DNA of 33,687 nt from an uncultured archaeon (lineage in GTDB: Archaea > Asgardarchaeota > Lokiarchaeia > Sigyniarchaeales > SOKP01), in NCBI GenBank assembly GCA_964583985.1, contig CAZOYD010000007.1:1-33687 (forward strand). Direction: 5' to 3'. Below the pieces are notes generated by a model, which worked only from the letters and a program-made list of their open reading frames with translations, was not told where the DNA came from and made no database searches. The position numbers and the translations under genes were made by a program. Numbering within the stretch: the stretch's first letter is position 1; each line of letters starts with the position of its first letter. This document shows positions 8,523 to 21,372 of this stretch, in pieces.

Positions 8523-10622
8523 TTAAACCCTAGTAGGATTTAAATATTCCAACATCTTCTGAACTTCATTAGTTGGTGGTTTGCAAGTCTTATTGATACA
8601 GACATAAGCTGTAGCTTTATTCAAGTATTTATCAAAAAACTCAACATAATTCGCAATTTTATCAATTGGGGGAGAATCTTTCTCAGTTTCACGATATAAT
8701 AACGTTTTATTCGGTAAATATTCCGTTCTAATCGATTCTATCATCTTTAGAGTATCCTCTTTCCCCTTATCTCCTGATATTACTAAAGAATAAGTAGGAC
8801 CAACGGCAAAATCAACTGCGGTCATTAAAAAAGCGTGTGCTGAAGGATTATTTCTAACATTTTCGGCAAAAATTCGGCTAATGATATCTGCTTTTCGTTC
8901 AAATTCTTGATTTCCTGTTATTTGAGAGAGCCGTAATAGATTAAGCATTGAAACGGAATTTCCTGAAGGAATTGCTCCATCATAAATTTCTTTTTGGCGA
9001 GCTATTAACTCTTCACCCTCTTTAGCTGTAAAATAAAATCCCCCAATTTCATTATCCCAAAATTGATCAATTTGGATATTCATAAGATAAATAGCCTTTT
9101 TGAGATAAAATATTTCGAAAGTGCTTTCATATAATTCCAATAAAGCCCATATTAAAAAAGAATAATCATCTAAATATGCAATAATCTCTGCAGAATTTTG
9201 TCGAAACCTATGTAATAAGTGCTCTTTTTCATCTTTCAACTTTTCAAGAATGAATTTCATGGCTTTTTCAGCTATATCAACGTAGTTCTTGTCATTAAAC
9301 ACAAATCCTCCTTTCGCAAATGCCGCAATCATTAATCCATTCCAATCTGTTAGTATTTTATCATCTAAATGTGGTCTTATTCTTTTTTCTCGAGCTTGGA
9401 AAATTTTAATTCTAATAACTTCTAATTTAGTCTTTAACTCATCCAATGATAAATTTCTCGCTTTAGCAAAATTATTCAGATTTTCTGTTATATGAGGGAT
9501 ATTTTTTTCCGTATGTTTTCTGGTGGATTCTTCCAAATAATTACCCCCCTTTTTTATGTTATAAAATGAAGAAAAAAGCTCCATTTCTTCAAAATTTAAT
9601 ATTTTATCCAAATCATTTATATGCCATGTGTAAAATTTCCCTTCTACTCCTTCACTATCAGCATCTTCTGCAGAATAAAAGGCACCTTCTGGAGATTTCA
9701 TATCTCTTATGATATAATTAAAAATCTCCTTTGCAGTATCCTTATATTGAGAGTTATTAGTTGCTTGAAATGCCTCAATGTACGTAAAAGCTAGAAGTGC
9801 ATTGTCATAGAGCATTTTTTCAAAGTGAGGTACCAACCATTGTCGATCTGTTGAATATCTATGAAATCCATAACCAATATGATCATGAATGCCTCCCATT
9901 CTCATGTATTTTAGGGTTTTCTCAACCATATTTAATGCTTCTAAATTATTATCGCGTTTATATATCCGAAGTAGAAAAAGCAAAGCATGTGGGGTAGGGA
10001 ATTTTGGTGAGGTCCCAAATCCACCATACTCATCATCAAATCGATCTTTTAATTGTTCATATGCATTATGTAAAACTGTTTCGTTTAGACTATTTCCAGG
10101 GGATTCAAGATTGATATCTTGAAGGGCAAATACAATTCTTTCACTAGAGTTAATTATATCCTCCTTATGATTATTCCAAAGATCTTTTACTTTTATAATT
10201 AAATCAACTAATCCTATTCTGCCAAAACGAGATTCCTTGGGAAAGTATGTACCCGCAAAAAAAGGTTTTTTATCAGGTGTCATTATTATTGTAAGTGGCC
10301 ATCCTCCTGAATTATTCATCATCTGGCAAACCATCATGTAAATTTTATCTATATCAGGGCGTTCCTCCCTATCTACTTTTATTGAAATAAACATTTCATT
10401 CATTAATTTCGCTACTTCTAAATCTTCAAAAGATTCATGAGCCATAACGTGGCACCAGTGGCAAGTAGAATACCCAATCGATAAAAAAATCGGCTTATTT
10501 TCTTTTTTCGCCTTTTGAAAGGCTTGCTCTGTCCACGGAAACCAATTTACAGGGTTTTTGGCGTGTTGTAACAAATAGGGACTTTTCTCGTTTATTAACT
10601 TATTATATTTTATTTCTGTCAT
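8523..10622 (-). CDS. yyaL: Thioredoxin-domain protein with (alpha/alpha)6 barrel, YyaL/SPATA20 (DUF255) family
   Basis: [79 protein letters not shown]. Confidence 0.93.
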
Positions 10623-10812
10623 ATTATTTAATCTGTTTTTACCACTCTAAATAATAGATATCTTGCAATTATATCAAAATAATGTTTATAATTCATGAGG
10701 TAAAATAGCTTAGCTCATAGCAATCAAAAGATAAAAAATAAGAATTATGATATTTTTTAAATTATAAATTTGAAATTCTAATTTAAAACAAAACTTAGTG
10801 TGGTTTTCTAAA

Positions 10813-11379
10813 TTGAAGGTTGTATTATTTAATGGGAGTCCTAGAAAAGAAGGAAATACATATCATTGCTTAAGCACTGTAATGCAAGAATTAACATCTG
10901 AAGGAATTGATTGTGATTATGTTTGGATCGGCATGGATAAATTACAAGGATGTACTGCATGTTACAAATGTGTTGAGAATAATGATCAAAGGTGTATTCT
11001 GAAAGGAGATAAAATGAACGAGTATATTGAAAAAATGCTCGAGGCTGATGGAATAATCATCGGGTCACCAACATATTTCTCAAATTTAACTACAAGTACG
11101 AAAGCATTGATAGAACGCGCTGGTTATGCAACATCTGGACATTTAAAAAACAAGATTGGTGCAGCTGTCGTGGCGGTTAGAAGGGCGGGCGCTAACCACG
11201 TCTTTTCGAGTATTAATTATTTCTTTTTAATCAAAGAAATGATTGTAGTTGGAAGTACATATTGGAACATGGGAATTGGAAGGGATCCAGGGGAAGTATT
11301 AGATGATAAAGAAGGAATTCGAACATTTAAAAATCTGGGCAAAAATTTTGCGTATGTACTTAAAAAAATGAAAGCTTAA
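10813..11379 (+). CDS. Iron-sulfur flavoprotein (Isf-like, flavodoxin/FMN-reductase family)
   Basis: NGSPRKEGNT FMN loop, compact CTACYKC-x7-C cluster motif, GSPTYF, RRAG. TTG 10813 is preferred over GTG 10798 as start. Confidence 0.88.
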   Translation: MKVVLFNGSPRKEGNTYHCLSTVMQELTSEGIDCDYVWIGMDKLQGCTACYKCVENNDQRCILKGDKMNEYIEKMLEADGIIIGSPTYFSNLTTSTKALIERAGYATSGHLKNKIGAAVVAVRRAGANHVFSSINYFFLIKEMIVVGSTYWNMGIGRDPGEVLDDKEGIRTFKNLGKNFAYVLKKMKA

Positions 11380-11394
11380 TTTTTTTTATTTTTA

Positions 11395-11976
11395 TTATTC
11401 TATACGATTTTCGATAAATTTATTTCCATATTCATTTATGTATATCAATTTAGAAAGCGGTTTACGAGGTGGTCTTTGTTTTTCACCTAATTTCATATTT
11501 TCACTTAGAACGGGATTAACTTCACTTGAATGTTTTCCTATGTTAATAAAAGTGATCAATCTCAGTTCTTTAGGAATATTTAATATTTCTTTAGCTTTTT
11601 CTTCATCGAATCCAGCAATAGGGTGTGCAACAAGTCCCAATTCCGTAGCTCTTAATATTATAAAAGCAACTGCCATTCCAGTATCAAATAAATAATACAT
11701 TCGTTCTTTTATTACGCAATCGTCCTTAGGAGTGGAAAAAACAGCAATCATCATGGAGGATTTTTCAACCCACTTGTTGCCAGGAGTTAAAGTGGAAAAT
11801 AGTTTTTCTAATTGTTCTTTATTATAGACAAATACAAAACGCCACGGTTGACTGTTACTGCATGATGGAGCGATTTGAGCAACATGAGCCAAATCATTTA
11901 TTAAATCATCATCTATTTCAACCGGATCTAATGATCTATAAGCTCGTCTCTTTTCTGTTGCTTCTTTCACATTCAT
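11395..11976 (-). CDS. Nitroreductase family protein
   Basis: KRRAYR, APSCSNSQPWRF, DTGMA...ATELGL..HPIAGFD, RK near the C-terminus. Confidence 0.92.
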   Translation of the reverse strand: MNVKEATEKRRAYRSLDPVEIDDDLINDLAHVAQIAPSCSNSQPWRFVFVYNKEQLEKLFSTLTPGNKWVEKSSMMIAVFSTPKDDCVIKERMYYLFDTGMAVAFIILRATELGLVAHPIAGFDEEKAKEILNIPKELRLITFINIGKHSSEVNPVLSENMKLGEKQRPPRKPLSKLIYINEYGNKFIENRIE

Positions 11977-12118
11977 ATTATAATCACCAAATTTCTTTAT
12001 TGAATTACAAAGAAAAACAAGTTATATCAAAATTAGGATTATATTCTATTAGATTTTTAAAGAGTAAATTTTTAATTGTTATATTTAATCAAAGATTAAA
12101 TAAGATATTAGGTAAAAA

Positions 12119-12601
12119 TTAAGCAGTTAATTCTACTAATTTAGATTTGACTTCTTCAGCATGTCCATTTACACTTACTTTAGGCCAAATAAAAGCAATT
12201 TTTCCTTCAGCATTAATTAAAAAAGTGCTCCGAATTACACCTTGATATGTATTACCTTTAAATTTTTTTAATCCCCATACTCCATATTTCGTTAATACTA
12301 TTTTTTCTTCATCACTGAGCAGTGTAACCTTCAATTTCTTTTTTTCTATGAATTTTCCATGCGATTCTGGACTGTCAGGGCTTACTCCGATTACGGTTGC
12401 ATCTAATTTCTCTAATTCCGGTAAGATTTCCGTAAATCCAATTGCTTCAGTGGTACAACCAGGAGTGTTATCAGCGGGATAAAAGTATAAGATAACATTT
12501 TTTCCTAAAAACTCTTTTAAACATACCTTTTTTTTATCTTTATCAAGAAGACAAAATTCTGGCGCTATGTCTCCAATTTTAAATTCAATTTTATCAGGCA
12601 T
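12119..12601 (-). CDS. bcp: Peroxiredoxin, Bcp/PrxQ family
   Basis: YFYPADNTPGCTTEA, GVSPD, RSTFLI; the helix-2 resolving Cys position is Ile. Confidence 0.92.
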   Translation of the reverse strand: MPDKIEFKIGDIAPEFCLLDKDKKKVCLKEFLGKNVILYFYPADNTPGCTTEAIGFTEILPELEKLDATVIGVSPDSPESHGKFIEKKKLKVTLLSDEEKIVLTKYGVWGLKKFKGNTYQGVIRSTFLINAEGKIAFIWPKVSVNGHAEEVKSKLVELTA

Positions 12602-13471: not shown

Positions 13472-14872
13472 TTACATTTTAAAATAATTCGCAGCGTTAT
13501 TATAACAAACATTTTCAATCATTTCCCCTAATAAATTCATATCAGCTGGTATTTTTCCTTTTTCAACATCCATTCCAATTATATTGCATAATATCCTTCG
13601 AAAATATTCGTGCCTTGGAAATGAAAGAAAACTTCTTGAATCTGTAGTCATTCCAATAAAGTGATATAACAAACCAAGATTTGATAATGAATTAATTTGT
13701 TTTGTGATCCCATCAATCTGATCTAAAAACCACCAACTTGGTCCAAATTGAATTTTCCCAGGACAAGTCTCATCTTGAAAATTTCCAATCATGGATGCAA
13801 CCATTTCATTATCTCTTGGATTGAGATTATAAATCACTGTTTTAGTGAGTTCATTTGATTGGTCAAGACGATCTAAAAATTTTGCCATATCTCTACTCAG
13901 GTTATAGTCTCCTATTGTATCACAACCAACATCAGGGCCTAAATTATTAAATAATCGAGTGTTTACATTGCGAAGTGCTCCAATATGGTATTGTTGAACC
14001 CAACCCCTCTTATGATTTAACCTTCCAACTTCAAATAAAAAAGCAGATTTAAATTTTGATGCTTCCAAATCGGACAACTCATTATTTGAAAGGATTTTTT
14101 GAAATATCATTTCAATATCTTGATCGGAATAGTTTTTGGCATATAAATGATCAACTCCATGGTCAGCTATGCGACAACCGTTATTATGGAAGTACTTATG
14201 ACGAATTCTTATTGCTTCTATCAAGCTAGAAAAATTTACTATTGGAACTTCAGATATTTCACCTAATTGTCGAATATACTTTATAAAATGCGCAGTATTT
14301 TCAATATTCATTGCACTATCGGGTCTAAAAGTTGGAAAAACCTTAACTTTATATCCATCCGATTTTATCTTCTTATGAAAATCCAAAGAGTCGATTGGAT
14401 CGTTTGAAGTACAGATTAATTTTACATTCATCATTTCTATGAGGTTTTTGATTGAGTATTCAGAAGATTTTAATAATTTAGAACAATGGTCATAAATCTT
14501 CTTGCTTGTTCCTGAATTTAGTAAATCTGAAATCTTAAAATAACGTTTTAATTCCAAATGAGTCCAATCGTAGAGTGGATTTCGAATTGTTTTAGGTACA
14601 GTTTCTGCCCACTTTTCGAATTTTTCATAATCTGTAGCATTACCCGTGCAAAAATACTCAGATATTCCATTAGCACGCATCAATCTCCATTTATAATGAT
14701 CTTCAGCAAGCCATGCTTGTCCAATATTATCAAAATTAATGTCATTAGCGATATCTTCTGCTGGTAAATGGCTATGAAAATCATATATCGGCATAGTTTT
14801 GGCGTGTTCGTGAAATAAATATTGAGCGGTTTTTGTTTCCAATAGAAAATTATCATCCATAAAAGGTTTCAT
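13472..14872 (-). CDS. uxaC: Uronate (glucuronate/galacturonate) isomerase
   Basis: FMDDNFLL, PIYDFHSHL, DHYKWRLMRANG, NPLYDWTHLEL, PTFRPD, QYHIGALRN, WWFLD, TDSRSFLSFPRHEYFRR. Confidence 0.96.
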   Translation of the reverse strand: MKPFMDDNFLLETKTAQYLFHEHAKTMPIYDFHSHLPAEDIANDINFDNIGQAWLAEDHYKWRLMRANGISEYFCTGNATDYEKFEKWAETVPKTIRNPLYDWTHLELKRYFKISDLLNSGTSKKIYDHCSKLLKSSEYSIKNLIEMMNVKLICTSNDPIDSLDFHKKIKSDGYKVKVFPTFRPDSAMNIENTAHFIKYIRQLGEISEVPIVNFSSLIEAIRIRHKYFHNNGCRIADHGVDHLYAKNYSDQDIEMIFQKILSNNELSDLEASKFKSAFLFEVGRLNHKRGWVQQYHIGALRNVNTRLFNNLGPDVGCDTIGDYNLSRDMAKFLDRLDQSNELTKTVIYNLNPRDNEMVASMIGNFQDETCPGKIQFGPSWWFLDQIDGITKQINSLSNLGLLYHFIGMTTDSRSFLSFPRHEYFRRILCNIIGMDVEKGKIPADMNLLGEMIENVCYNNAANYFKM

Positions 14873-15024: not shown

Positions 15025-16524
15025 TTACGGATCATTTCTGAAAGGGTGACGAGCATTTTCCGCATTATCAATTGCATCTTCAACCGTAGGAAGCCCCTCG
15101 ATTGCTTTTCGAATGGCATTCCTCGTAGCTTTATAGTTATTTATAAAAACTCTTTTACGACTACTCGCACTAGGATGTATAAAAACATTTACTATTATTA
15201 CAATGTCTTCAGAAGCAGCTTTTGGTAGTATCCCATCTTCAACACATTGTATTACGGCTTTAGCAATTGCAGCTTGTGCTGGTCCGTACGTTAAACTTGC
15301 ATGCCTAAGAGAAGTGACTTTTACTGTTGGGATCATTACTGTTGCTGGTTTTACTTGCATATTTGGTTCTAATATTACTTGTAGCCCTTCACGTCCTTTT
15401 GCTGGATGTGTCAAAGCTTTTGCATAAGCCTCTCCTACAGGTCCTTTCTTATCTCCAATTAATAGATCTATATGGGCCAGTTCTACTCGATCTCCTACTA
15501 AAGATTCACCTACTTTTAAGCTGAAATCTGATATCTTTTCAGGTGTAACACCAACGGCATAAAATCGACTTGTGAGTTCTTTTTCTCCAATCTCAAACTT
15601 GAGCTCTTTCTTTTCTATCAATCCTAATTTTTCTAATTCTACACGAAATTCATCTCTTAACTCATATGAAAGGGAATCTCCCAAAATTATTGGTTGACGC
15701 GTTATGCCTACAGGTATTCCCATAAGATTAAGACATTCCTTAGCACCCAATGCACCCGAATTAATTAGCATTCTTGCTATTTTTTGTACCTTTTTTTGCA
15801 GTGTTTGAGCTTCTGTTAAGCGATTATTTTGAACTAAATCATACAATTCTAGCCATATTTTAGGAATAACATTAGCTGACCCCAAGATGCATCCTGCAGC
15901 TCCACCTGCTAATGCTCCAAGCACCAACTCATCCCATCCGATTAAGACAGAAATTTTATCACTAACTTTTTCTAATAACGCAGAATGGTATTTATAATCG
16001 CCACTTGAATCTTTAATTGCCACAAAATTTTCGATATCAACTAAATCTTCTACCACGGTCCAAGGTAAATCAACTCCAGTGCACACGGGAATGTTATATA
16101 GTACAATTGGAATGTCTGTTTTTTCAGCGATGGAGAAATAATGATCGTATAACCCCTTGGCTTTTGGCTTTAAATAGTAAGGAGTGACGATAATAACTGC
16201 ATCTGCTCCTATATCCGTTGCAGCTTTACTAGCATCGATAACTAATTTAGTCCCCGTTTCTCCTGTACCAGCAATTACTGGCACTCTTCCATTCGTCTCA
16301 TCAACAACAATTTCAATCACTTTCAGTCGTTCCTTAAAAGTCATATTCACAAATTCTCCAGTTGTACCACAAGGCACAAGTCCAGTTACACCCTGTTCGA
16401 TGAAATAATTAACTAAATATCTCAATTGATCTTCATTTATCGATTCATCCTTATTGAAGGGAGTTACCATCGCAGGCATTACTCCTTTTGGTCTATAATC
16501 AAATTTTCCCATATTATTTTTCAC
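15025..16524 (-). CDS. Fusion of a DHDPS/NAL-family class I aldolase (aa 1-~303) and formaldehyde-activating enzyme Fae (aa ~336-499)
   Basis: N-terminal part: VTPF, GTTGE, TPYY, LYNIP (Y143), IKDSSG (K171), GWDE, GSANV. C-terminal part: VGESLVG..ELAHIDLLIG..GPVG, PN..VKP.T, GPAQAAIAKAV, VFIHP, NY.ATR.AI..A, RHPF. One uninterrupted frame; start GTG 16524 or ATG 16512. Confidence 0.92.
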   Translation of the reverse strand: MKNNMGKFDYRPKGVMPAMVTPFNKDESINEDQLRYLVNYFIEQGVTGLVPCGTTGEFVNMTFKERLKVIEIVVDETNGRVPVIAGTGETGTKLVIDASKAATDIGADAVIIVTPYYLKPKAKGLYDHYFSIAEKTDIPIVLYNIPVCTGVDLPWTVVEDLVDIENFVAIKDSSGDYKYHSALLEKVSDKISVLIGWDELVLGALAGGAAGCILGSANVIPKIWLELYDLVQNNRLTEAQTLQKKVQKIARMLINSGALGAKECLNLMGIPVGITRQPIILGDSLSYELRDEFRVELEKLGLIEKKELKFEIGEKELTSRFYAVGVTPEKISDFSLKVGESLVGDRVELAHIDLLIGDKKGPVGEAYAKALTHPAKGREGLQVILEPNMQVKPATVMIPTVKVTSLRHASLTYGPAQAAIAKAVIQCVEDGILPKAASEDIVIIVNVFIHPSASSRKRVFINNYKATRNAIRKAIEGLPTVEDAIDNAENARHPFRNDP

Positions 16525-16532
16525 TCTAATTT

Positions 16533-17819
16533 TTATTTATAATAATGCAAATTTCTTGCCGCAATAAAGGACAATCCGTTCCTTGTCAGTGCCTCTGCTG
16601 TTGAATTAACAGCATCATTCCGATCTAAATGGTTAATCCGAAGAAAATCCCATAATCCGGCCTTTATTATTTCTTCCTTAGGTAAAAAGTATTCAAGTAT
16701 ATCAGTAGGATGTTCTCGTTTTTCATCAACTTCAACGTTTCCCCCTTCATGCTTGGCACTTACATTCTTAACTTTTTTTGCTAAATCTAACAACTCATCC
16801 CTTCGATCATATGGCTGGCGAACAATACTTTTCCAAGTCTCCGTTATATGGTGCTCCAATCTAACGACATCCTCAAATCCGAAAGGTTTTCGGATATAAG
16901 CAGCCATTTCAATTGTGTCATTATTTACAGCGTTTGATAAATTAAACCCAATTAATGGGCTAGTTCCATCTTCTCGAGCGAATAATTTTGCCGTGAGTAA
17001 TGTCCATAAACAAGAATAAGGATTGTCGTTACCCATATAAACGCTAATTTTAAATTCATTATTTATTCCAAGTTTATGAATAAAATAACCTAAAAGCACG
17101 GTCCCAGGGTTGACATTTAGAACTTGTTTAATCCCATAGTTTGTATAATAATAAAGGAACTCATCTATCCATTTAAGTGCATAGTCATTTGGTTGTCCGA
17201 CACCTCCAAAATAACCAGTAATTGTATCTGGTCCGCCCAAATGTACATTAACAGGCATTCCATCTGGACCTGGAGCAGTTCCCTTTGTATCAAGCGTTTC
17301 AACCCAACTCGAACCAATAACTTGCATCGCCGCAGCCATAGCAGGCAAATCTCCATCTTCCTCTTGTTCTTTCATGCGTCTTACGCGAATGATTCTACCA
17401 GGAACTAATTTTTGATTTTCAAGTGCATCTTTAGCAATATCAATTAAAAAAGGAAAATATTGGCACGCAGATAATTCTAAGGTTACAGCAAAATCTTCAT
17501 TAAATTGCATTTCTGAAAACTGCTCTCCTAATATTTTTCTTCTATAATCATTAACGCTAATAAAGGAATGATTGTCACGCTCATTTATTAGCCACTCTAT
17601 ATCCTTAACATAATCAGGATTCTTTCTATTAATTTTATCAATTAAATTATCAAATTTGCTTGCTTCTTCTGCTTTCCTATTTATCTCATTGATACCACCA
17701 TATTTATCTAATATGGTAAATAAATCATTAATTAATGGATTTTCTTCATCCAGCAAAAAATCATTGACTGATTTTAGGGCATCCTTAGGGATTTCTAATT
17801 TTTTTCTTAAATCTTTCAT
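16533..17819 (-). CDS. Uncharacterised soluble protein, probably enzymatic, immediately upstream of the aldolase-Fae fusion
   Basis: 428 aa with motif-like blocks (VTLELSACQYFP, ETLDTKG, NVHLGGPDTITGYFGGVGQPN, FKISVYMGNDNP, GFNLSN, EHHITE, SAKHEGG); 8-nt gap to the next ORF. Confidence 0.85.
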   Translation of the reverse strand: MKDLRKKLEIPKDALKSVNDFLLDEENPLINDLFTILDKYGGINEINRKAEEASKFDNLIDKINRKNPDYVKDIEWLINERDNHSFISVNDYRRKILGEQFSEMQFNEDFAVTLELSACQYFPFLIDIAKDALENQKLVPGRIIRVRRMKEQEEDGDLPAMAAAMQVIGSSWVETLDTKGTAPGPDGMPVNVHLGGPDTITGYFGGVGQPNDYALKWIDEFLYYYTNYGIKQVLNVNPGTVLLGYFIHKLGINNEFKISVYMGNDNPYSCLWTLLTAKLFAREDGTSPLIGFNLSNAVNNDTIEMAAYIRKPFGFEDVVRLEHHITETWKSIVRQPYDRRDELLDLAKKVKNVSAKHEGGNVEVDEKREHPTDILEYFLPKEEIIKAGLWDFLRINHLDRNDAVNSTAEALTRNGLSFIAARNLHYYK

Positions 17820-18167
17820 TTCAATACACTATGTACTTTTTTTCTATAAATTTGAGCGTCTACCCATAGCTTTCCCACAATTCCAAAACATACTGGGATA
17901 GATCATAAATTTTATCAAGATTCATTATGTTATAAATTTATTTGTACCACTATGAAATTCAAGGAAATAATGAACTATTCATCATAAAAAGTAACAATTG
18001 AATTTAAACTCATAAATTAACTATAATATATCTAATATATTTCCCTCTTTCCAAAATTTCGCTAAAATAATTTATCGGGGATTGCATCTATGGCCAAGAT
18101 TAGCAATAGATAGAGTCATAAAATTTTCCAATCTGGTGAATAATGCATAAGATTCAGATCAAAATGG

Positions 18168-18533
18168 TCAATAACAATTTATTGCATTCACAATTTCATC
18201 TAATAAGTGATCCAAAGAAAAGGGTTTCTCATAGAAGCTAAAAGCTCCAATTGATAAAGCTTCTTCTTTGATACTCATATCAGCACTAATAAAAATTATC
18301 TTTACTTTTTTATCTATTTGTAAAATCTCTTTAGTAGCCTCAAGTCCTGATTTAATTGGCATACGATTATCCATTAAAATTAATTTTGGTTTCGTCTCGA
18401 AAGATTTGAACATAAGGATTGCTTCTTCTCCATCCGATGCAATACCAATCACTTCATATCCACTGAAAGTCAAAAATTTCTCAAAAAAAAATTGAACAGC
18501 TGGTTCATCATCTACTATAAATATTTTTTCCAG
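18168..18533 (-). CDS. Stand-alone response-regulator receiver (CheY-like) protein, apparent CTG start
   Basis: Extending the frame upstream of TTG 18473 gives LEKIFIVDDEP, the required acidic pair; also ILMDNRMPIKSG, ISA, KPF. CTG at 18533 lies 6 nt after SD AGGTGA. Confidence 0.9.
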   Translation of the reverse strand: MEKIFIVDDEPAVQFFFEKFLTFSGYEVIGIASDGEEAILMFKSFETKPKLILMDNRMPIKSGLEATKEILQIDKKVKIIFISADMSIKEEALSIGAFSFYEKPFSLDHLLDEIVNAINCY

Positions 18534-18984: not shown

Positions 18985-21372
18985 TTAATAGCTTATATTA
19001 TTATCTGCCACATTCCAAGAATTTATTATGGAATTAAACACCCTTGGCGGATTATCTCCGAGATAAAGAGAGCCATGATTCATTAGATCAAAACAAGAGC
19101 TAATAATCATATCACCCCCACCTAAAGCATCATTTTCACACCAATAATTCGTACCGCTTGACCCGTGAATGAATGTAGAGTATTTTGAAATCCATGTATT
19201 ATTTGCTATCATCGTCCATTTAATAACAGGGTTATCGATATAGCCAATTAATGTGCTTCTCTCAATATATACATTAGTATAATTGCTATTATGGTGTATC
19301 ACATACAATCTGTCTGAATGTCCTTGGATTTGTGAATCTATAATATTTAAATATGAATTACTGTTTCCTCCCGTAATATTAATTAACATAATAGCCCTAT
19401 TATTAGGATCACCGCAATCCTCTATATGAACAAGAGTGTTATTTCCACTAATTTCAAGCGTTTTAATATTTAAAATTTTTAATTCATTAAATTCAATATT
19501 TTGTCCTTCTGAGACATTAATAAATGTTTCAGAAATACTTGTAATACCATGTGTATCATGCCCATCAATAAAGATTGGATAATTTCCAAGAATTAATTCA
19601 TCTTCTGTTGAAATATCTTCAGTTAAAGATATGCTACAATCTTCTTTATTTATGGATTTGATAGCATCTTGAAGTGTTATATAACCATCAAAACCTCCTT
19701 TTCCTACCGTCTTAATTGGATTAATATAACTGAAATTTCCATCTAATCCTGCATTTTGATAATTCCCAGAATAATCAGCACCCGTGATTGGAACATCACA
19801 GATAATATCTCTCCCATCTAATCCTCTCCATTGGTCAGTAGGAGTTGAAGGAGTTGGAGGTGAAATTCTTGGGAAATGGAAGAAATTGTCTTTTATGATG
19901 ATTAAAGAAGGTTGTCGAACCAATTCAATCCCAGCAGGTAAATAGCAATCCATTATATCTATAATTTCCGATGTGTTAATAATCATTCTACCAATACCAT
20001 CATTCTGTTCACTCCAAAGATTCCAATGCGAGATTTTATTATTCTCAACAGCACCACCCAAACCAAGTAATCTGTACCATTTATATTCGTGGTGATCTGC
20101 AAGAATAACCGGATCAGTAAAACCCGGATAATCACCCGAAAACGTCCAATCACCAGGAGTTATGGTGTGTAAAGTTAACCAAGCACCATTCACACCATTA
20201 GTAGAATCATCCGAACCTTGAAGTGTTGGGAAGCTTGTCAGGAGTTCTAAAAAAGCATTTTCATCTGGAACTGCCACCGAAAACTGACCAATATTTGTAG
20301 ATTCATATAACGATTCGCCAACATTTACTGCTATATATGTCATATTTTCAGCATAGGTAGTTAAAAATCCATCTTGAACATTCTCTATGTTTACCCCATC
20401 TGAATAATGAGGTTTACCCACAATTATATTTTTACCAATACCATTATTAAGACCCATGGCTAATTTTGAACTTGTTGCATATAAAGACCAGTCTCCTCCA
20501 ATATAAGGTGATGTGGCACTGAAATCTGTATCAGAGAAGAATCTGACTTGACTAACCATACTTTTACCAACATTTGTATTATTATGAGTACTCCCAAATT
20601 CAAAAGTTGTCGATGTTATCTCGCAATTTTCAAACCATATATCCAGAGGATCTTCATGTTCTCCGGTTAAACTTACGCGAGCGTTTTCACTAAAACCACA
20701 ACTTTTAAAGTGGACTGTTCGATATGGGCCTGTTGAACCACCAGTACGATTATTTTCCTTGATATATCCCTTATTGAAATTGCAATCTGTAAATCTACCT
20801 GCTGTAGCGCCTATTTCCATCATTATATTATTACTTGAATTTGCCTCGATTCGCATATTCCACATTCTATAAAAATCTGCTGATGTACTTCTGAGAGGAT
20901 AATTACTTGAATTGCTGCCAATATTTACAATCTTAGCTGAGGCACCATCCCATGATCTTTCAACACCAAGTATATTAACACCAGAGGGAGCATGAATCTG
21001 CTCGTTATAAACTCCCGCATAAACCATAACAGTTGCTCTCGCACCACCTGTAGGAGCCCATTCAGATATTGCAAAGTCTATTCCTGCTTGTATTGTACTA
21101 AATTGATGAGCATTAGAATCATTTGTAAAGGAAGGACTCACAAAACAAGTCTTTTCTGGATTAAAATTATCATCAAAATAATTTGTAATAGCATCAGGAC
21201 TATTTATGTAATAACCAAGAGTCCCTGCGACAATAGCAACAGCTAGAACAATAATGATTCCAGCACTAATTCTTTTTCTCATCTGCATCTTATTTTTAGC
21301 TCGTATTTTATCATGAGGAAGATACGAGATATTTAGAAATCTTTTTTTAGAATTTATAAAATTAAACATCAT
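18985..21372 (-). CDS. Membrane-anchored extracellular pectin-lyase-like beta-helix protein with inserted discoidin-like module
   Basis: TM segment aa ~35-56; beta-helix cap motifs FSTIQAGID...VMVYAGVYNEQI and GYITLQDAI; I-x-D/N-C/S rungs; many N-x-S/T sequons; SD AGGAGTGA. Confidence 0.7.
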   Translation of the reverse strand: MMFNFINSKKRFLNISYLPHDKIRAKNKMQMRKRISAGIIIVLAVAIVAGTLGYYINSPDAITNYFDDNFNPEKTCFVSPSFTNDSNAHQFSTIQAGIDFAISEWAPTGGARATVMVYAGVYNEQIHAPSGVNILGVERSWDGASAKIVNIGSNSSNYPLRSTSADFYRMWNMRIEANSSNNIMMEIGATAGRFTDCNFNKGYIKENNRTGGSTGPYRTVHFKSCGFSENARVSLTGEHEDPLDIWFENCEITSTTFEFGSTHNNTNVGKSMVSQVRFFSDTDFSATSPYIGGDWSLYATSSKLAMGLNNGIGKNIIVGKPHYSDGVNIENVQDGFLTTYAENMTYIAVNVGESLYESTNIGQFSVAVPDENAFLELLTSFPTLQGSDDSTNGVNGAWLTLHTITPGDWTFSGDYPGFTDPVILADHHEYKWYRLLGLGGAVENNKISHWNLWSEQNDGIGRMIINTSEIIDIMDCYLPAGIELVRQPSLIIIKDNFFHFPRISPPTPSTPTDQWRGLDGRDIICDVPITGADYSGNYQNAGLDGNFSYINPIKTVGKGGFDGYITLQDAIKSINKEDCSISLTEDISTEDELILGNYPIFIDGHDTHGITSISETFINVSEGQNIEFNELKILNIKTLEISGNNTLVHIEDCGDPNNRAIMLINITGGNSNSYLNIIDSQIQGHSDRLYVIHHNSNYTNVYIERSTLIGYIDNPVIKWTMIANNTWISKYSTFIHGSSGTNYWCENDALGGGDMIISSCFDLMNHGSLYLGDNPPRVFNSIINSWNVADNNISY

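Follow-up and report, generated by a model that had tools for sequence, protein, structure and literature searches.

The locus described here raises the question of which reaction is catalyzed by a protein that matches no described family and is encoded next to an enzyme of one-carbon metabolism. It lies in a stretch of 33,687 nucleotides (the window) that makes up positions 1 to 33,687 of contig CAZOYD010000007.1 (assembly GCA_964583985.1), from an uncultured lokiarchaeal member of the Asgard archaea (Sigyniarchaeales). There, an orphan enzyme gene encoding 428 aa, designated T (16533-17819, minus strand) and recognized from its open reading frame (ORF) and translation, its conservation, and an AlphaFold2 model, directly precedes a gene (15025-16524, minus strand) that fuses a class I aldolase of the DHDPS family (residues 12-293) to formaldehyde-activating enzyme (Fae; residues 338-495), as identified by PF00701 (3.4e-76), PF08714 (7.2e-57), TIGR03126 (189 bits), and synteny. 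The original prediction, made from the sequence alone, held that T was a metal-dependent barrel enzyme that makes the substrate of this aldolase or uses its product. Our analysis revealed that the coupling of T to one-carbon aldol enzymes is robust, and it points, more tentatively, to 4-hydroxy-2-oxobutanoate (HOB) as the metabolite around which T may act.

T is a conserved enzyme outside the described families

Neither T nor the profile of its family nor 28 members scanned singly matched any Pfam or NCBIfam family, even at E values up to 10, and a comparison of T with PDB sequences returned no match, so the earlier description of an uncharacterised 428-aa ORF was borne out. A word-indexed search found at least 8,000 homologs, counted as 90%-identity clusters and every one annotated as hypothetical; names of Lokiarchaeota, Promethearchaeota, and other Asgard archaea among them indicate an Asgard origin of the window. 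An exhaustive search of 50%-identity representatives yielded few distinct full-length clusters, at 62%, 50%, and 40% identity, indicating that the family is compact. Scans of one genome per species revealed at least 579 to 584 carrier species with 63 to 90% identity, including Loki-, Thor-, Heimdall-, Hod-, Hermod-, and Odinarchaeota, Bathyarchaeia, Thermoplasmata, and Methanomassiliicoccales among the archaea, and Chloroflexota (mostly Anaerolineae), Desulfobacterota, Synergistota, Bacillota, Spirochaetota, Coprothermobacterota, and some cyanobacteria among the bacteria. Anoxynatronum sibiricum and A. buryatiense are among the cultured carriers. A genome scan with P0130 gave no match.

Archaeal and bacterial T proteins share 62 to 68% identity, and among 200 archaeal and bacterial sequences, 106 of the 428 positions were at least 97% identical, including E115, S117, R142, R147, D177, N191, H193, N235, N237, K257, S259, D265, N266, R282, D284, N293, R310, R320, E322, H323, H324, Q335, K356, H357, E358, and H425. 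With at least 8,000 clusters at 90% identity and this many near-invariant positions, the gene must be regarded as real. All of the Gly/His/Glu/Asn-rich motifs that had first drawn attention to T are present, namely ETLDTKG (residues 174-180), NVHLGGPDTITGYFGG (191-206), FKISVYMGNDNP (256-267), GFNLS (291-295), EHHITE (322-327), and KHEGG (356-360). The absence of a Cys cluster, also stated earlier, was confirmed, because T has only two Cys residues, C119 and C270, and neither is kept in distant homologs. T is thus a strongly conserved enzyme outside any described family.

In addition, two observations were made on individual members of the family. A 385-aa homolog with 50% identity and a shorter N terminus (L008:8001-9158) is encoded on a 41-kb virus-like contig together with replication and repair genes (RFC-like AAA, ERCC4, and Vsr); possibly it serves an archaeal virus as an auxiliary metabolic gene. 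Several of the high-GC family "representatives" (P0134, P0136, P0143, P0178, and P0266) are frameshifted translations, one of which reads on into a gene for a beta-keto acid cleavage enzyme (BKACE); this read-through hints at a further neighbor of T in high-GC bacteria.

Gene context couples T to one-carbon aldol enzymes

The archaeal context set comprised 78 loci, in which ORFs were called and then clustered. The DHDPS-Fae gene accompanied T in 43 of these loci, standing immediately downstream in 35, two genes off in 2, and in divergent orientation in 6. Contexts of this type occurred in Lokiarchaeia, one Heimdall group, and Bathyarchaeia, the last of which contributed all six divergent cases. 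In another Heimdall/Hod group and in Thermoplasmata, T was found in tight operons with a class I/II aminotransferase, a homoserine dehydrogenase, and an aldehyde:ferredoxin oxidoreductase (AOR), amounting to 14 to 15 loci; the homoserine dehydrogenase is bona fide (NF004912, 422 bits against a cutoff of 373), and the genomes concerned contain one PanB and no Fae. The neighbors of T in Thorarchaeota were uninformative, and a tandem DHDPS-Fae pair stood elsewhere in the genome (L090/L091). Tandem pairs of this kind were seen both on the Thorarchaeota chromosome and in Chloroflexota (L293 and L295, with a 64-aa DUF6485 gene between the two), and they may represent hetero-oligomers or two successive formaldehyde-releasing steps.

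Bacterial context was assessed in two independent sets of 80 loci. The gene adjoining T encoded a member of the PanB family (TIGR00222, 304 bits) in 27 to 30 of 69 loci in one set and in 29 of 76 in the other. The T-linked PanB scores above the equivalog cutoff of TIGR00222, and genes for formate-tetrahydrofolate (THF) ligase and FolD are sometimes divergent from it. Two full PanB genes were present in all five bacterial genomes checked; the copy adjoining T scored lower in four of them and tied in the fifth, and the other copy was directly followed by ApbA/PanE in three. The PanB adjoining T is therefore a paralog (PanB2), which many anaerobic bacteria carry as a second copy dedicated to T (loci L095-L172 and L183-L261; e.g., L170:5405-6265), the housekeeping panB sitting with panE, and both receive the label "3-methyl-2-oxobutanoate hydroxymethyltransferase" in automatic annotation. 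Moreover, an AsnC/Lrp regulator and an aminotransferase were recurrent partners in Desulfobacterota, in AsnC-PanB2-T-aminotransferase operons; amino acid dehydrogenases of the Glu/Leu/Phe/Val type stood near T in about 13 bacterial loci, including PanB2-T-dehydrogenase operons (see also L180); and a class I fumarase-type hydro-lyase did so in three. One cyanobacterial cluster combined a thiamine diphosphate enzyme, ApbA, an amino acid dehydrogenase, DHDPS, and T. The neighborhoods of T homologs, named in the original prediction as a place to check it, show recurrent linkage to aldolase-Fae and PanB and, in some cases, to FolD. The archaea concerned use tetrahydromethanopterin (H4MPT) and the bacteria THF, and since a nearly unchanged T pairs with the aldolase-Fae fusion in the former and with PanB in the latter, T is suggested to handle a substrate other than the pterin.

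Phyletic pattern and the orphan family k1

Among 150 Asgard genomes, each at least 80% complete, T was present in 77, in a patchy pattern. In the family to which the window belongs, 18 genomes contained both T and a DHDPS-Fae-type frame, 8 contained neither, and the 3 mismatches all fell at contig ends; the 8 genomes with neither imply that loss took place independently at least four times, in two genera and in two individual genomes. The claim that T is tied to the aldolase-Fae gene can accordingly be upheld as far as adjacency or proximity in 43 of 78 archaeal loci, this co-loss, and the PanB paralog of bacteria are concerned, but the tie is not obligatory. Asgard families f5 and f21 have T and lack Fae, and families f9, f12, f13, f17, and f20 have DHDPS-Fae and lack T.

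Where the fusion occurred without T, a different orphan family, k1, adjoined it in 8 of the 10 loci fetched (k1 occurs in L283-L290 and L293-L296, in every case adjoining DHDPS-Fae; e.g., L283:5304-6251). Proteins of this family are 310 to 316 aa long (315 aa at the Asgard loci), have no Pfam match, and are widespread and conserved, with about 65% identity between Asgard archaea and Chloroflexota. In Chloroflexota and Bathyarchaeia, too, k1 precedes DHDPS-Fae, and one Chloroflexota cluster consists of TAL/FSA, k1, DHDPS-Fae, DUF6485, and DHDPS-Fae, with AOR, Aldolase_II, and FGGY genes opposite. k1 was detected in 21 of the 150 Asgard genomes, never together with T, and every Asgard family with DHDPS-Fae-type frames has either T or k1, so that the fusion apparently depends on having a barrel protein of the T/k1 superfamily as its partner.

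T is a barrel protein with a possible remote link to U32 proteins

The AlphaFold2 model of T, computed from a 28-sequence alignment, had a predicted local distance difference test score (pLDDT) of 90.9 and a predicted template modeling (TM) score of 0.90. It consists of an N-terminal domain of six helices (about residues 1-105) and an eight-stranded beta/alpha barrel (about residues 106-425), with low confidence in the Gly-rich loop 185-210. According to the model and the conservation pattern, invariant E, R, K, H, D, and N residues are located at the C-terminal ends of all eight strands, and H193, H323, H324, and H357, which would be the candidates for a three-His divalent-metal site of the class II aldolase type, are invariant. 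The proposal of a barrel enzyme was thus supported. A Foldseek comparison, which had also been suggested as a check, gave the barrel fold and only weak PDB matches, led by class II fructose-bisphosphate aldolases (5u7s, E 3e-4; TM 0.32 to 0.40). Against representative structures (VIA), the result was a flat list of TIM barrels with Z scores of 10.5 to 12.4, comprising CutC, IspG, the U32 protein Mk0906, BKACE, class II aldolases, and xylose-isomerase-like barrels. Mk0906 (5d88) reached a Z score of 11.2 with the lowest root mean square deviation, 2.9 A over 183 residues, in a range that dozens of unrelated barrels share. The best ESM-Atlas shape match was a 313-aa cluster labeled "putative peptidase U32" (TM 0.57 on the query and 0.76 on the target), of whose members only 17% carry PF01136; ESM-Atlas feature searches returned only noise, that is, replication proteins and hypotheticals.

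The original prediction had noted, as a weak resemblance, that part of T recalls U32-like barrels. As a direct assignment this failed, since none of the 28 T-family members matched PF01136 at E values up to 10 and direct profile comparison scored 0.1%; T is accordingly not filed under U32, for which the two defining features, the profile match and the four-Cys motif, are both missing. An indirect connection was obtained through k1. With small alignments and the secondary-structure term not used, hhalign joined T to k1 at 75.5% (E 2.4e-5) over 241 columns when 8 k1 sequences were used, covering the whole barrel with the strand motifs in register, and at 52.9% (E 1.4e-4) over 230 columns with 125 k1 sequences. 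k1 was in turn joined to U32 at 93 to 95% (E 6.5e-8 to 2.8e-7) over 151 to 198 columns, with the Cys positions of U32 replaced in k1; reversed-alignment controls gave 0.1 to 0.4%. The k1 model is likewise a barrel (pLDDT 81), with class II aldolases as the best Foldseek class (1gvf, E 4.6e-9, TM about 0.5). This chain, together with the Atlas match, supports the U32 hunch indirectly and suggests that T is related, though very remotely, to the U32 barrel proteins. A match to GlmE over residues 22-417 raised the B12 mutase large subunit as a further candidate, which was rejected, no gene context containing a B12-binding subunit.

A proposed function in the metabolism of HOB

The chemistry of the partners of T is well defined. 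DHDPS-type aldolases cleave a 4-hydroxy-2-oxoacid to yield pyruvate and an aldehyde, Fae catalyzes the condensation of formaldehyde and H4MPT, and PanB transfers hydroxymethyl groups from methylene-THF to C3 of a 2-oxoacid or back. To our knowledge, HOB is the sole 2-oxoacid that releases formaldehyde on pyruvate-aldol cleavage, and it is also the transamination partner of homoserine. Because this one compound fits the chemistry of the DHDPS-type aldolase, Fae, and PanB, we infer that it is the metabolite they share. The aminotransferase or amino acid dehydrogenase, homoserine dehydrogenase, and AOR neighbors would then be explained as well, since HOB pairs with homoserine and AOR could oxidize aspartate semialdehyde. 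As part of the best explanation, T would be a catalytic partner of the enzymes that reversibly join a formaldehyde-level C1 unit to pyruvate.

In such a pathway, the aldolase-Fae or PanB2 step would link HOB to pyruvate and methylene-H4MPT or methylene-THF, and, alternatively, the aminotransferase, homoserine dehydrogenase, and AOR would link it to aspartate. Since all these other steps of HOB have an enzyme of their own, T would have to join HOB to something else; judging by the operons that also contain AsnC and an aminotransferase, this second compound may likewise be the 2-oxoacid of an amino acid. T may thus interconvert HOB with a neighboring C4 compound, forming an enolate at C3 of the bound 2-oxoacid and then carrying out an elimination or addition at C4; candidate reactions would be HOB <-> 2-oxobut-3-enoate + H2O and 4-methylthio-2-oxobutanoate + H2O -> HOB + methanethiol. 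Our reading, to which we give somewhat less than an even chance, is that T is a U32-like barrel enzyme lacking a cluster, that its substrate is HOB or a 2-oxobutanoate substituted at position 4, and that it probably works as a lyase or hydratase.

Several points weigh against this reading. On the structural side, hhalign of T (200 sequences) with Asgard U32 proteins (18 sequences) gave the 0.1% mentioned above, the fold matches are flat, with many unrelated barrels at VIA Z scores of 10.5 to 12.4, and a relation to class II aldolases is absent at the profile level (T or k1 versus two Asgard PF01116 groups in hhalign, 0.1 to 2.3%). On the metabolic side, HOB is deduced solely from the chemistry of the partners, PanB2 might use a substrate other than pyruvate, and some genomes have T and lack the C1 enzymes, as in the Heimdall and Hod lineages, whereas others have the fusion and lack T, as in Asgard families f9, f12, f13, f17, and f20. 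Moreover, no pathway gap for T is obvious in its own genome, which holds two HcyBio genes, a Cys/Met pyridoxal phosphate enzyme, PanB, ApbA, and a canonical prephenate dehydratase. A role in filling a gap in homocysteine or methionine biosynthesis found no support for the same reason, the two HcyBio genes and the Cys/Met enzyme being present, and a cluster-less prephenate dehydratase would fill no gap beside the canonical one. With no gap in homocysteine synthesis, an essential biosynthetic role of T is unlikely, and its patchy distribution fits a capability that is accessory and probably catabolic. Finally, some contexts are those of sugar acid metabolism (IlvD/EDD, altronate-type dehydratase, FGGY, PfkB, Dak kinases, and UxaC).

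These last contexts lead to the alternative that T is an acid-sugar dehydratase making HOB or another 2-keto-3-deoxy acid from L-threonate, D-erythronate, or a larger sugar acid and so feeding the aldolase, which we consider unlikely. Sugar acid genes do recur around T: UxaC lies downstream of the fusion in the window, one T-family context holds MFS, GntR, two PfkB genes, a xylose-isomerase-like barrel, and ROK, the clade at 40% identity has an ABC transporter, IlvD/EDD, a metallo-beta-lactamase (MBL) fold, Dak1/2, and IclR as neighbors, a Syntrophaceae-type cluster sets PanB, an FGGY kinase, and T opposite DHDPS, AOR, and an altronate-type dehydratase, and k1 clusters contain AOR, Aldolase_II, FGGY, and TAL/FSA. 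The conserved Lys, His, Glu, and Arg residues of T would also suit proton abstraction beside a carboxylate. However, such contexts are a minority, some already hold another dehydratase, and a sugar acid dehydrogenase or lactonase was never consistently linked to T, whose commonest extra partners are aminotransferases, amino acid dehydrogenases, and the AsnC regulator. T gave no Pfam or NCBIfam match to acid-sugar dehydratase families (enolase superfamily, UxuA, IlvD/EDD, and UxaA), and ManD-type structures were only weak Foldseek matches (E about 6e-3, TM 0.32). It is more doubtful still that T acts on its own account as a metal-dependent aldolase or lyase, making or breaking a C-C bond, for instance by releasing formaldehyde or a different aldehyde, with Fae, PanB2, or AOR clearing the product. 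The best Foldseek matches of both T (5u7s) and k1 (1gvf) are class II aldolases, AOR is a recurrent neighbor, and T is present in Heimdall and Hod lineages that lack both DHDPS-Fae and PanB2, but profile similarity to PF01116 is about 1%, the TM scores are just 0.3 to 0.5, the Z scores are flat across barrels, and T would duplicate the neighboring aldolase. At the profile level (no Pfam match, hhalign about 1%), membership in the class II aldolases was rejected.

A place for T in the pantoate and coenzyme A pathway, where it might, for instance, act after PanB as a ketopantoate reductase not orthologous to PanE, with DHDPS-Fae as the archaeal analogue of ketopantoate hydroxymethyltransferase, would be consistent with the panB-T adjacency, which mirrors panB-panE in the same genomes, and with the score of the T-linked PanB above its equivalog cutoff. 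It is nevertheless highly improbable. A separate canonical PanB is kept in all genomes tested, beside panE in three of the five bacteria, the Asgard genome of the window has canonical PanB and ApbA matches elsewhere, and T is absent from about half of the Asgard genomes, close relatives included. In addition, T showed no match to PF02558, the Rossmann NAD(P)-binding family, and its model of a helical domain and a barrel has no nucleotide-binding fold. T as an analogue of a missing PanB or PanE was rejected on these grounds; since canonical PanB and ApbA are present elsewhere, T is not simply a missing pantoate enzyme, nor is DHDPS-Fae simply the missing archaeal PanB. Equally remote is the chance that T retains a U32-type activity, be it prephenate-dependent hydroxylation or RNA or quinone modification. 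The profile chain from T through k1 to U32, the Atlas match to a U32-annotated cluster, the RNA modification genes TrmI and RsmB/F near some loci, and the homolog on the virus-like contig could be read in its favor, but the four-Cys [4Fe-4S] motif is missing in T and k1, T has neither a PF01136 match nor the U32 C-terminal domain, its consistent partners are small-molecule enzymes, and its own genome holds three ordinary U32 genes.

Comparison with known systems

U32 proteins are described as iron-sulfur, prephenate-dependent hydroxylases (PMC10990095, PMC6599085, PMC5727448), and the four-Cys [4Fe-4S] motif, reported to be functionally important in UbiU/V, is carried by most of them (PMC10990095). 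With this family (PF01136: RlhA, TrhP, and UbiU/UbiV; Mk0906, PDB 5d88), T has a TIM barrel in common, as dozens of unrelated proteins do, and may be tied to it by the profile chain via k1, whereas it has an added N-terminal helical domain and no such motif, and its partners are aldolases and amino acid enzymes rather than those of RNA or quinone pathways. The class II aldolases (PF01116) are the top Foldseek class of T and k1, and all three have a beta-hairpin insertion after strand 3; T and k1 differ from them in the low TM and hhalign values given above and in lacking a Pfam match.

At the level of pathways, the closest parallel is the archaeal reverse ribulose-monophosphate route of Fae-Hps and Phi, in which a formaldehyde-releasing aldolase is likewise fused to Fae, so that C1 passes directly to H4MPT, and the aldolase receives its substrate from another enzyme, a part that T may play. 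The T module differs in having a DHDPS-type pyruvate aldolase instead of Hps, T or k1 instead of Phi, and probably a C4 2-oxoacid instead of hexulose-6-phosphate as substrate; Fae-Hps-type genes coexist with DHDPS-Fae in the same genomes. T follows the PanB paralog as panE follows housekeeping panB in the same bacterial genomes, and both would be two-step modules opening with hydroxymethyl transfer from methylene-THF to a 2-oxoacid, but T is a barrel without a Rossmann fold, and its module is patchy and additional to the canonical pair. In aromatic meta-cleavage pathways, 2-oxopent-4-enoate hydratase is paired with 4-hydroxy-2-oxovalerate aldolase, and such hydratases have the FAH fold. The principle proposed for T would be the same, a hydro-lyase making a 4-hydroxy-2-oxoacid that a pyruvate aldolase splits, although there is no relation in sequence or fold and the aldehyde would be formaldehyde captured on a pterin. 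The synthetic homoserine cycle and other HOB pathways share the likely intermediates, pyruvate + formaldehyde <-> HOB <-> homoserine; compared with these engineered routes, the T module would be natural and pterin coupled and would include an extra dedicated enzyme, T or k1, that they lack. In the literature found, HOB is mainly an intermediate of engineered pathways, and literature searches turned up nothing relevant on HOB pathways occurring in nature, on Asgard Fae fusions, or on comparable PanB paralogs.

Transcription signals and flanking genes of T

The gap between T and the fusion gene on their common strand is 8 nt, as described earlier, if the latter starts at the GTG at 16524, and 20 nt if it starts at the ATG at 16512, which is 12 nt past the GTG and has the Shine-Dalgarno-like motif GAGTGA just before it (junction at 16513-16532, minus strand). 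Because homologs of the fusion are 495 to 496 aa long and GAGTGA precedes the ATG, the ATG is likely the true start, and the 20-nt gap is the more likely one. No terminator-like site was found when this junction was searched, implying that the two genes are cotranscribed. In the upstream region of T (17820-17860, minus strand), the sequence shows a TTTATA box (17850-17845) roughly 25 nt ahead of the ATG, which could be an archaeal promoter giving a transcript with little or no leader.

A full-length glucuronate isomerase gene, uxaC (13472-14872, minus strand; PF02614, 5e-199, 662 bits), follows 152 nt downstream of the fusion. Within the archaeal context set this position was found only in L010 and L011, the closest relatives, and UxaC is probably outside the core module; UDP-glucose dehydrogenase and UxaC were rejected as pathway members, being lineage-specific neighbors only. 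Further downstream (8523-12601) lie genes for a peroxiredoxin, a nitroreductase, an FMN reductase, and a DsbH-like thioredoxin, which are syntenic with T in many Lokiarchaeia; in other lineages T adjoins rubrerythrin and desulfoferrodoxin, a nitroreductase, or DJ-1 and a thioredoxin. On the other side, a 795-aa ORF (18985-21372) has no Pfam or NCBIfam match, and similar large ORFs (cluster c9) occur near T in several Asgard loci. The profile match of a response-regulator receiver ORF (18168-18473) begins only at position 21 from a TTG start, and its true start may be upstream or its start codon unusual.

Biological implications

T belongs to a large and extremely conserved family found in evolutionarily important organisms, and the candidate substrates are few. 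It is possible, if less likely than not, that T and k1 are the dedicated enzymes of a natural and widespread "HOB shunt" and that in T the U32-type barrel, free of an Fe-S cluster, has been put to a catalytic use not seen before. Such a pterin-coupled shunt, found in Asgard archaea, Bathyarchaeia, and anaerobic bacteria, would reversibly connect C4 amino acid metabolism (methionine, homoserine, and aspartate) or C4 sugar acids with pyruvate and either methylene-H4MPT or methylene-THF, and nature would have in it a version of its own of the engineered homoserine cycle. If this is true, the "DapA" and "PanB" labels on the partner genes of T would be corrected, synthetic biology would gain a naturally evolved enzyme set for C1 assimilation routes, and the poorly understood U32 barrel superfamily would be found to have a wider chemistry. 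Arguments on syntrophy and eukaryogenesis draw on how the metabolism of Lokiarchaeia, Thorarchaeia, Bathyarchaeia, and Anaerolineae has been reconstructed, and these reconstructions would change, for a "hypothetical" protein of thousands of sediment genomes, carried among others by the Asgard relatives of eukaryotes, would be a key enzyme between one-carbon carriers and C3/C4 metabolism.

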